37,313 bases of DNA, from IMG/VR virus record IMGVR_UViG_3300028549_002563. The stretch is one strand, 5' to 3'. This DNA is from a virus. The number at the start of each line of letters is the position of its first letter. The stretch's first letter is position 1. Positions 34,751 to 35,337 of the stretch are shown here, one piece after another. The position numbers and the translations under genes were made by a program. The notes beneath the pieces were generated by a model. The model made no database searches and had not been told where the DNA came from. It saw only the letters and a program-made list of their open reading frames with translations.

Positions 34751-35215
34751 TTATAACTGATTAACAATCTCTTCTATATATTTAATTTCTTCTTCATTAA
34801 TATTATACTTTTTATATAGATAAGCATCTGTTATTGTTTTTGAATAATCTTCAGCTGGAATATATTTAAAATTTATTGAACTTATTAAAATTCCCTTAAA
34901 ACTTAAATATAATAAAAACTTAAATAACTTTGTTTTTGTATAACTTAAAAAGTTTTCTGCTTCTTCTTTATTATAAGTTGTATATAACAATAAAAATGTT
35001 TCTGATACTATTTCATTAGCTTCTAATAAAAAACATCTTGATTTTTTATCTGTTTTTGACATACAAATCTTATATTTTAAAACTTCATCTTCATTTTTTA
35101 AAACTTTATTAACATAATATTGCTTATTATTCTTACAATAAATTTTTATTAATCCTTTTTCTTCACCTTTAAAAAAACCTCTATATCCAAAGGGATTAGA
35201 TGTATATATATTCAT
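34751..35215 (-). CDS. Target-recognition-domain-like protein 2 (paralog of 35331-35825)
   Basis: Aligns with the upstream paralog across ...KYK..., F(L/N)(L/I)LY, ...(L/F)FKF(L/F)L.L... and the C-terminus LYKKYNINEEEIKYIEEIV. Confidence 0.65.
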   Translation of the reverse strand: MNIYTSNPFGYRGFFKGEEKGLIKIYCKNNKQYYVNKVLKNEDEVLKYKICMSKTDKKSRCFLLEANEIVSETFLLLYTTYNKEEAENFLSYTKTKLFKFLLYLSFKGILISSINFKYIPAEDYSKTITDAYLYKKYNINEEEIKYIEEIVNQL

Positions 35216-35337
35216 ATAATCACCCTTTTGGATGATGTTATCTCTCTCTCTCTCTCTCTCTCTCTCTCTCTCTCTCTCTCTCTCTCTGGATTAAAATTAG
35301 ATGTATATCCGAATGGATCTCTATTAAAAACTAACAT
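35212..35337 (-). CDS. Leader ORF reading through the dinucleotide tract (MLVFNRDPFGYTSNFNP-(ER)n-ITSSKRVII)
   Basis: Hand-translated base by base. The ATG at 35337 overlaps the stop of the upstream ORF (ATGTTAG). The stop TGA at 35212-35214 overlaps the ATG of the 34751-35215 ORF as ATGA. Confidence 0.35.
   Translation of the reverse strand: MLVFNRDPFGYTSNFNPEREREREREREREREITSSKRVII
35241..35287. repeat. Simple sequence repeat (TC)23T, i.e. (GA)n on the coding strand
   Basis: Read directly: 47 uninterrupted nt of alternating T and C. Confidence 0.97.

Follow-up and report, generated by a model that had tools for sequence, protein, structure and literature searches.

How might a phage vary the specificity of its DNA methylase among its own progeny? 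The question is raised by a locus in the IMG/VR viral record IMGVR_UViG_3300028549_002563, a stretch of 37,313 nucleotides that we refer to as the window. An initial annotation, made from the letters alone, had pointed to a 47-nt (TC)23T tract just upstream of TRD2, the second of two genes for stand-alone target recognition domains (TRDs) of an adenine methylase, and had proposed that three length classes of the tract give three translational outcomes for TRD2. Following up this proposal, we find that the locus is best read, with reasonable probability, as a contingency locus in which slipped-strand changes tune or switch one specificity subunit out of two.

Tract length determines how a leader ORF meets TRD2

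The window is a circularly closed assembly of a tailed phage, with 37,092 unique bp, an exact terminal overlap of 221 nt (positions 1 to 221 equal positions 37093 to 37313) and a GC content of 23.9%. Tandem Repeats Finder confirmed the tract as a perfect repeat (Table 1). It is the sole dinucleotide run of at least five units in the window and, at the thresholds used, the sole simple repeat with a unit of 1 to 6 nt. When a 16-nt (TC)8 probe was allowed up to one mismatch, its matches in the window were confined to the tract, against an expectation of 0.00 from 100 dinucleotide-preserving shuffles. The tract thus has the structural hallmarks of a contingency locus: it is perfect, its unit is not a multiple of three, and it has at least five dinucleotide units, the threshold given in PMC7383803.

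Two Logan unitig contigs (run SRR21758068) have flanks identical to those of the window and break inside the tract, one finishing with (GA)14 and the other beginning with (AG)13A, as expected for k = 31. They carry no information on tract length, and the run may represent the same sample as the window. Because these unitigs recover both flanks running into the repeat, the tract is not an artifact of one assembler. In a consensus built from a metagenome, the exact unit count may represent the mode of a mixed population.

On the minus strand, the tract lies in a leader open reading frame (ORF), which was also listed among the mechanically called ORFs. As the initial annotation had described, its ATG at 35337 overlaps the TRD1 stop codon (ATGTTAG), and it reads the tract as (Glu-Arg)n. 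The tract starts at the third base of leader codon 17. At the assembled length (n = 23), the leader TGA overlaps the TRD2 start codon as ATGA (35215 to 35212), i.e., an upstream stop overlaps a downstream start, as in translationally coupled genes. We edited the tract in silico to n-1, n+1 and n+2 units, and each change altered the translation. With one more unit, the leader ends as ...ERER at a TAA directly past the tract, 22 nt before the TRD2 ATG. With one unit fewer or two more, an open fusion, MLVFNRDPFGYTSNFNP(ER)n-DNIIQKGDY-MNIYTSNPFGY..., runs to the TRD2 stop over 195 aa. All of the predicted outcomes were therefore reproduced. A Mycoplasma-type code, in which TGA encodes Trp, would abolish the leader stop; it was ruled out, as all 37 Trp codons in the 35 long ORFs of the window are TGG. 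None of these ORFs contains an in-frame TGA and 4 of the 35 end in TGA, which is thus a true stop codon.

The methylase is split into a catalytic core and two recognition subunits

The first gene of the locus encodes the catalytic core, in which motif I (EPTCGNGNF, aa 41 to 49) precedes motif IV (IIGNPPYQ, aa 139 to 146), the order of the gamma class. The core matched the Pfam profiles Eco57I (PF07669; E, 7e-23; 82 bits for a cut-off of 25.3) and N6_Mtase (PF02384; E, 5e-8; 33 bits for a cut-off of 20.4). A search with the core and TRD1 concatenated returned thousands of relatives. Nearly all of the best 120 are single proteins of 450 to 550 aa, and these single-chain homologues, more than 100 in number, cover 97 to 100% of the concatenate; fused forms are also encoded by three IMG/VR phage contigs. 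Because the homologues are fused in single proteins of this size, whereas the core of the window stops in the inter-domain linker, past the conserved …ILKK helix, the methylase of the window is a split one.

TRD1 and TRD2 can both be aligned along their entire length with the C-terminal domain found in the fused homologues, including the terminal helix pair …W(T/N)DExLYKxYNLTEEEIxYIE, and they share 38% identity over their aligned stretch. The recognition domain is thus encoded after the linker stop in two separate ORFs and not, as in the rest of the family, on the core polypeptide. Judged by homology, the locus is a split derivative of the gamma-class N6-adenine family, with the CamA/M.TaqI/M.BseCI architecture. 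A HMMER search of 1.84 billion representative sequences with TRD2 found 1062 relatives at E values of at most 1e-3; nearly all of the matches are the C-terminal ~150 aa of proteins of 300 to 550 aa, and a few stand alone.

The AlphaFold model of a fused homologue (P0004, 40% identical; predicted local distance difference test [pLDDT], 93) matched CamA with an E value of 6.5e-20, and also M.BseCI, PglX, MmeI and M.TaqI, all of them gamma-class adenine methylases with a C-terminal DNA-recognition domain. TRD2 modeled alone with AF2 (AlphaFold 2; pLDDT, 93.5) had weak fold matches to domains of the same kind, the best to PglX (E, 0.03), followed by BsaXI, CamA and Type I S subunits. A PDB sequence search gave no match, and Pfam detected no Methylase_S domain (PF01420) in TRD1 or TRD2. 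The label “TRD” in the initial annotation is reasonable in view of the fused-homologue model, and by position and homology it appears a fair one. We infer that TRD1 and TRD2 are alternative subunits that assemble in trans with a single catalytic core. The initial annotation had noted neither the split nor this sharing of one core, nor the strengths of the ribosome-binding sites given below.

Three side observations concern the arrangement of these domains. Protein P0242 (413 aa) has two tandem recognition domains in one chain (…WTDEELYHKFELT…IKPIV, then …WTDEELYRKFGL…IKPIV), and duplication of the recognition domain therefore also occurs in the fused form. The PHROG 11371 profile (383 positions) is matched by the TRDs at about positions 190 to 261 and by the core N terminus at 283 to 373; some phage proteins of that family thus have a recognition-domain segment ahead of a methylase N terminus, which could be due to a permuted order or to read-through of adjacent genes. 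Lastly, an A_AAA_AAA heptamer near the end of the core gene (window positions 35849 to 35855, minus strand; TTA AAA AAA GTT) is in the correct frame for -1 ribosomal frameshifting. The -1 frame stays open up to the TRD1 ATG, and a slip, possible in the window, would yield a core-TRD1 fusion (…ILKK-SFKHGDII-MKTLTD…) with a linker of normal length. We rejected a conserved programmed frameshift between the two genes by comparison, read by eye and not computed, with the sister phage introduced below: its -1 frame past CTT AAA AAG runs into a TAA in no more than five codons, and its first downstream start is immediately preceded by a stop. The heptamer is probably due to chance, A-runs being common at 24% GC.

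The leader is a duplicated start module, and the sister phage has a tract at the paralogous position

Across the family, the recognition domain starts with the consensus VSSRKPFGLxTNF, and the leader and the TRD2 N terminus share the motif R/N-x-PFG-[YF]-x-[TS]-N-F. The leader sequence NRDPFGYTSNF fits the family consensus SRKPFGxxTNF, as does the TRD2 N-terminal sequence TSNPFGYRGFF. On this sequence evidence, the leader arose by duplication of the N-terminal PFG module of 17 codons, two copies of which stand in tandem in the TRD2 cassette. The initial annotation had taken the motif shared by leader and TRD2 as a sign that the fusion frame is or was real. Two observations support this view: recognition domains across the family begin with this conserved motif, and in a related phage a GA tract lies within the TRD2-type coding sequence, directly past the same 17-codon module.

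That phage, the sole close relative found, is JGI contig Ga0643524_0000667 (37,405 bp, circular, with a 127-nt overlap that begins inside its GA tract), here called the sister phage; it was read as pieces that include L002 and L014. Its backbone is 89 to 91% identical to that of the window at the nucleotide level, and the terminase and endolysin proteins are 98 and 96% identical, respectively. By far the most diverged segment is the methylase locus: the cores share 73% identity in protein and 79% in nucleotides, the TRD1 pair shares 52% and the TRD2 pair 55% in protein. The locus is thus the part of both phages that evolves fastest, which fits rapid diversification or cassette exchange. The sister core (286 aa) is also truncated at the inter-domain linker, and the TRD1 orthologue is found at positions 423 to 914 of L014. 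The order of the TRDs is swapped: the core is followed by a TRD2-type cassette and then by a TRD1-type gene, with an ATGA overlap.

The sister tract, (AG)10 (L002, 10975 to 10994), is the sole simple repeat in the 22.6 kb of that phage covered by the scan. It begins past codon 17 of the second module copy, with the codon register (xCA GAG AGA) unchanged, and is intragenic: in the TRD2-type protein it falls in the loop that joins the PFG motif to the first beta-strand, a loop of variable length and charged composition across the rest of the family. The start codon that precedes it has a perfect AAGGAGG Shine-Dalgarno (SD) sequence (-12.2 kcal/mol). At the assembled length, translation from this start terminates right past the tract, and one additional unit would put it in frame with the domain; a weaker upstream start is in frame with the domain at the present length. 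When the four module copies, two per phage, are aligned, the SD, the ATG, the 17 codons and a purine-rich stretch are in register, and in each phage the purine-rich stretch of one module is a pure GA run. The comparison of tract length between related genomes that the initial annotation had called for thus gave different lengths, 23 and 10 units, in two genomes. A GA tract has either been kept by the TRD2-type cassette or re-arisen on it despite ~45% protein divergence.

A proposed switch acting on TRD2

The ribosome-binding sites (RBSs) of the operon were compared by their pairing energy with the anti-SD sequence (Table 1). The leader has a normal RBS, with the AGAGGAA motif and the spacing found for the holin-like and endolysin genes; values of -5 kcal/mol or lower were reached by only 16% of all minus-strand ATGs. 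TRD2 has the weakest RBS of the operon. Together, these two features make a dependence of TRD2 on leader translation more plausible. The spacer between the tract and TRD2 resembles the sister-phage sequence that joins the 3′ end of the core gene to the start codon following it, and the AAAAGGGT…ATG context of TRD2 also occurs there (L002, 10850 to 10868), with the core stop codon 4 nt before the ATG. The TRD2 start context looks like that of a start that normally works beside a terminating ribosome, which fits reinitiation.

From the anatomy, frame outcomes, homologies and comparative pattern demonstrated above, we infer slippage, leader translation, core-TRD assembly in trans and a biological pay-off, as follows. 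The tract would gain or lose GA units by slipped-strand mispairing during replication of the phage DNA, so that a burst would hold all three length classes. In the assembled state, ribosomes translating the leader would terminate at the UGA that shares bases with the TRD2 AUG and then restart at this AUG, giving short TRD2. In the second class, they would stop at the UAA at the tract end, 22 nt upstream, and TRD2 would be made at a low level from its own weak RBS only. In the third, they would read through and produce an extended TRD2 whose two PFG modules are joined by an (ER)n linker. As TRD1 and TRD2 would have to share one core, the division of methylation between TRD2 and TRD1 targets would be set by how much TRD2 is made and in which form. 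Sibling virions would then carry differing methylation patterns, which would be a bet-hedge against hosts that differ in restriction systems or in methylation-dependent defenses.

Several points weigh against this mechanism. TRD2 has its own ATG and a recognizable, if weak, RBS, and the tract may have little bearing on its expression. The tract precedes module copy 2 in the window and follows it in the sister phage, and thus cannot work identically in both; in the sister phage, moreover, the assembled length leaves the strong start out of frame. The length comparison involves two genomes that share ~90% of their backbone. The binding of the TRDs to the core in trans, and a difference between TRD1 and TRD2 targets, are assumptions of the model, and the fold matches of the TRD2-only structure are weak (best E, 0.03). 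No dipeptide repeat occurs among ~400 homologous proteins, which makes the repeat a lineage-specific feature, and a recent neutral expansion of the tract is conceivable.

Alternative explanations

The alternative that survives best, although we consider it rather unlikely, is a classic binary ON/OFF switch. Only the product of the leader ATG that is in frame through the repeat would be functional, the ATG at 35215 would encode an internal methionine, and the window would be in phase OFF, with an incidental overlap. The sister phage, whose tract is part of the coding sequence, separates the PFG module from the first beta-strand and stands behind a perfect SD, provides a model for such a switch, and the normal SD of the leader, the weak SD of TRD2 and the length of the open fusion frame agree with it. 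However, the fused protein would hold two PFG modules and a spacer of ~24 aa, a combination seen in no homologue. Furthermore, the TRD2 ATG has the sequence context of a post-stop start in the sister phage, and the ATGA overlap is present at exactly the assembled length.

Alternatively, a purine-rich Glu/Lys/Arg linker might have been expanded by slippage without any selected role, with TRD2 using its own start regardless. All four module copies precede purine-rich sequence (GGTGAAGAAAAAGGA, AAGGAGGAAAATAAA), so that the site is prone to GA expansion; no other homologue has such a repeat, and 119 of the first 120 long GA tracts of IMG/VR are not beside a methylase detectable with two probes. 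Nonetheless, we hold a neutral microsatellite to be improbable. The tract is the only simple repeat in either phage, over the 22.6 kb scanned in the case of the sister, and it is perfect over 47 nt. Both phages have a pure tract, at paralogous positions and in the same codon register, despite surrounding genes that are 52 to 55% identical, and every length class gives a clean and distinct translational result.

The polypurine/polypyrimidine tract might also act at the DNA level, forming a hotspot (H-DNA) at which recombination or paused replication helps to shuffle the TRD cassettes, an idea to which we give little credence. The swapped TRD order, start modules that are mosaic between the two phages and a locus that is the most diverged part of a ~90% identical backbone all invite it, but a role in translation is indicated by the exact register past codon 17 and by stops that are specific to a frame; in addition, no shufflon-like inverted or direct repeats flank the cassettes and no recombinase was found nearby. 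Finally, an assembly or sequencing artifact is scarcely credible: low-complexity repeats are prone to misassembly, the consensus unit number is uncertain and the Logan contigs break in the tract, but the unique sequence on either side continues into the repeat in the output of two assemblers, and a homologous tract is present in the contig of a different JGI sample.

GA tracts in other phage methylase genes

Scanning IMG/VR for the module-plus-GA pattern, we matched a locus (L101) in IMGVR_UViG_3300024268_000212, an unrelated 36-kb phage contig with 39% GC. A (GA)8 tract there, the sole dinucleotide repeat in 13.8 kb, separates the two domains of a ParB-methylase, and a (GA)9 or (GA)6 tract would restore a single protein of 426 to 428 aa. 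This locus is a candidate phase-variable phage methylase of a different class. In a second locus (L208), on another unrelated phage contig, (GA)16 separates the main part of an N6_N4 methylase (VNLLQGDCLELMK…SPPY; Pfam E, 2e-41) from a GTG start that has a good RBS, AAGGAAGGA (VADETVIEIPQ(RE)n…). Start and methylase body are in different frames as assembled and would be joined by 17 or 14 units into a protein of ~277 aa. These two loci show that the GA-tract arrangement recurs in other classes of phage methylase. A general tie of long GA tracts to methylase genes in viral contigs was rejected: among the first 120 IMG/VR loci with (GA)n of at least 11 units, probed with two methylase probes, 1 of 120, L208, was beside a detectable methylase.

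We tentatively entertain, as a possibility rather than as the likelier outcome, that a natural split phage methyltransferase is a three-state stochastic specificity switch operated by (GA)n and duplicated start modules; in that case the tracts of L101 and L208 would hint that phages employ dinucleotide contingency loci more widely, in a way not yet described, to control anti-restriction methylation. If this is true, each burst holds virions with different protective methylation patterns, one core being repartitioned between two targets, and phages hedge their epigenetic “passport” much as bacteria hedge restriction specificity. The locus would also show how recognition domains of a CamA/TaqI-type methylase act in trans in nature, which is useful for specificity engineering. 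As a compact system, it is directly testable by amplicon and methylome sequencing.

Table 1. Features of the methylase locus of the window and of two loci with GA tracts in other contigs; dG, energy of pairing with the anti-SD sequence
Feature	Contig	Position	Strand	dG (kcal/mol)	Properties
Catalytic core, gamma-class N6-adenine DNA methyltransferase	Window	35828-36670	Minus	-6.4	280 aa; ends within the inter-domain linker (…DILKKVLNTEI, stop)
TRD1, stand-alone recognition-domain subunit	Window	35331-35825	Minus	-6.6	164 aa; ATG 2 nt past core stop (TAAttATG); SD GGAG
Leader SD-like AGAGGAA	Window	35346-35352	Minus	-6.0	~10 nt before ATG 35337
Leader ORF (module copy 1)	Window	35212-35337	Minus	-6.0	41 aa, MLVFNRDPFGYTSNFNP(ER)7E-ITSSKRVII; ATG, 17 codons with PFG module, then repeat as (Glu-Arg)n
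Perfect (TC)23T / A(GA)23 tract	Window	35241-35287	Plus, as (TC)23T		Period 2, 23.5 copies, 100% matches (Tandem Repeats Finder); proposed slipped-strand hypermutable element
Post-tract spacer TAACATCATCCAAAAGGGTGATTAT	Window	35216-35240	Minus		Source of the n+1 TAA and of the weak TRD2 SD AAGGGTG (35221-35227)
TRD2, second stand-alone recognition-domain subunit	Window	34751-35215	Minus	-4.5	154 aa; opens with module copy 2 (MNIYTSNPFGYRGFFKG)
Best sigma-70-like site, TTGAAA-17-TATTAT with TG	Window	36701-36729	Minus		Upstream of core; 10/12 match; possible operon promoter, weak evidence
Holin-like gene	Window			-6.0
Endolysin gene	Window			-6.0
L101 locus	IMGVR_UViG_3300024268_000212	7621-8905			(GA)8 at 7994-8009; ParB_N ORF and N6_N4_Mtase ORF (DPPY) split exactly at the tract, inter-domain linker
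L208 locus	IMGVR_UViG_3300045988_070822	868-1720	Minus		(GA)16 at 1636-1667

Searches for relatives and neighboring features

Searches of GenBank phage nucleotide sequences returned two weak 180-nt methylase matches or nothing, and a tblastn search of phages for TRD2 was negative. In IMG/VR, which was scanned with the core, with TRD2 and with alignments of TRD2 and of the terminase, no close relative was detected and distant fused methylases only. No further relative appeared in two scans of JGI metagenome contigs, nor any in a scan of GTDB genomes with the core alignment. A word-indexed protein search with TRD2 returned only the query itself, and an exact look-up returned no record. Three candidates whose endolysins are 68 to 77% identical (P0123, P0129 and P0139) were rejected as unrelated phages without this locus. 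With regard to the host, the endolysin relatives found in genomes are at most 46% identical and come from many phyla, the largest group being metagenome-assembled genomes of Elusimicrobiales (~43% identical). No tRNAs were found in the window, and no integrase was seen among the window ORFs scanned.

The stretch from the core to the endolysin gene is devoid of terminator-like sites, and the number of sigma-70-like sites in the region equaled the shuffle expectation; a promoter or terminator role of the tract was therefore rejected.

Elsewhere in the window, a 300-nt direct repeat (92% identical) is present in intergenic regions at 6118 to 6417 and 32627 to 32926, 26.5 kb apart. Each copy holds short iterons (AATAACGCT, 2.8 copies, and TTATTAGCG, 2.6 copies), and the sister phage has kept both copies, which may serve as arrays for replication origin function or for regulator binding. 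A 77-nt direct repeat (78%; 8741 to 8817 and 10612 to 10688) flanks a primase-like gene (8832 to 10583). Each of its copies has an AT-rich palindromic core (…AAGAAATTTTTTTATTTCTT…) and the two are possibly a terminator or operator pair. A 461-aa ORF with a GTG start (11391 to 12776, plus strand) matches the transposase family phrog_506 (E, 1e-18) and may be a mobile-element passenger in the phage genome.

Comparison with known systems

In the literature, we found no description of a split CamA/TaqI-type methylase with alternative stand-alone TRD genes, of a dinucleotide tract controlling such a TRD, or of such a phage locus. Repeat-switched methylases are already known in bacteria, and phage contingency loci have been proposed only recently, for short homopolymer runs.

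The nearest bacterial parallel is offered by Type I hsdS genes, which contain AG[n] repeats in Mycoplasmataceae, a poly-G tract in NgoAV and AAGAC[n] in F. nucleatum (Atack et al. 2020, PMC7383803). There, as proposed here, a hypermutable tract, often AG/GA, in the gene for the recognition subunit changes the partner of a constant methylase, resulting in a change of specificity and not in its mere loss. In contrast to the hsdS tract, which sits between the two TRDs of one gene, the tract of the window is at the 5′ end, between duplicated start modules. The enzyme is also different: it is phage-borne, Type II-like and of the gamma-class CamA/TaqI type, not HsdM/HsdS, it lacks Methylase_S, the relatives of TRD2 are Eco57I-type C termini, and the catalytic partner is itself of the Eco57I type.

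Type III mod and Type IIG (cj0031) methylases are likewise switched by repeats, forming phasevarions (PMC4889913, PMC12707154). The likeness lies in slipped-strand frameshifting that toggles methylation of a motif. However, the tracts of phasevarions are within a single methylase ORF, act as ON/OFF switches, are bacterial and affect host gene regulation, whereas the tract of the window leaves the catalytic gene intact, affects a single recognition subunit out of two and has three outcomes.

Among phages, contingency loci comprise the A-tracts of T2/T4 agt and rIIA, the poly-G tracts of Fletchervirus receptor-binding proteins and a poly-G tract in the methylase gene of a Bordetella phage called “BBP-1” in the preprint; DNA modification by agt helps against one restriction system and hurts against another (bioRxiv 10.1101/2025.10.21.683753). 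In all of these, as would be the case here, a simple repeat encoded by the phage yields heterogeneous progeny. The known loci are short homopolymers that cause loss or regain of function, whereas the window has a 23-unit dinucleotide tract tied to a modular split methylase whose specificity subunits are alternatives.

Multispecific cytosine-C5 methylases of the Bacillus phages SPR, phi3T and H2 (Trautner et al. 1996, cited in PMC12707154) reportedly have several TRDs on one core. The likeness is functional only: one phage core serves several TRDs, and phages of the SPR type are thereby shielded from more than one restriction enzyme of the host. The TRDs of these phages form one continuous polypeptide of the C5 class and are constitutive, whereas the TRDs of the window are separate genes of an N6-adenine enzyme, one of them under a hypermutable tract.

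A precedent for the gene overlap is provided by EcoKI, whose hsdM and hsdS genes overlap by 1 nt and are translationally coupled; when the frameshift between them is removed, an active fusion results (PMC3510504). Both systems have a stop/start overlap between consecutive subunit genes, and fused and split forms of methylase and specificity subunit are both viable in nature. The overlap of EcoKI is fixed, whereas that of the window exists in one of three repeat-length classes.

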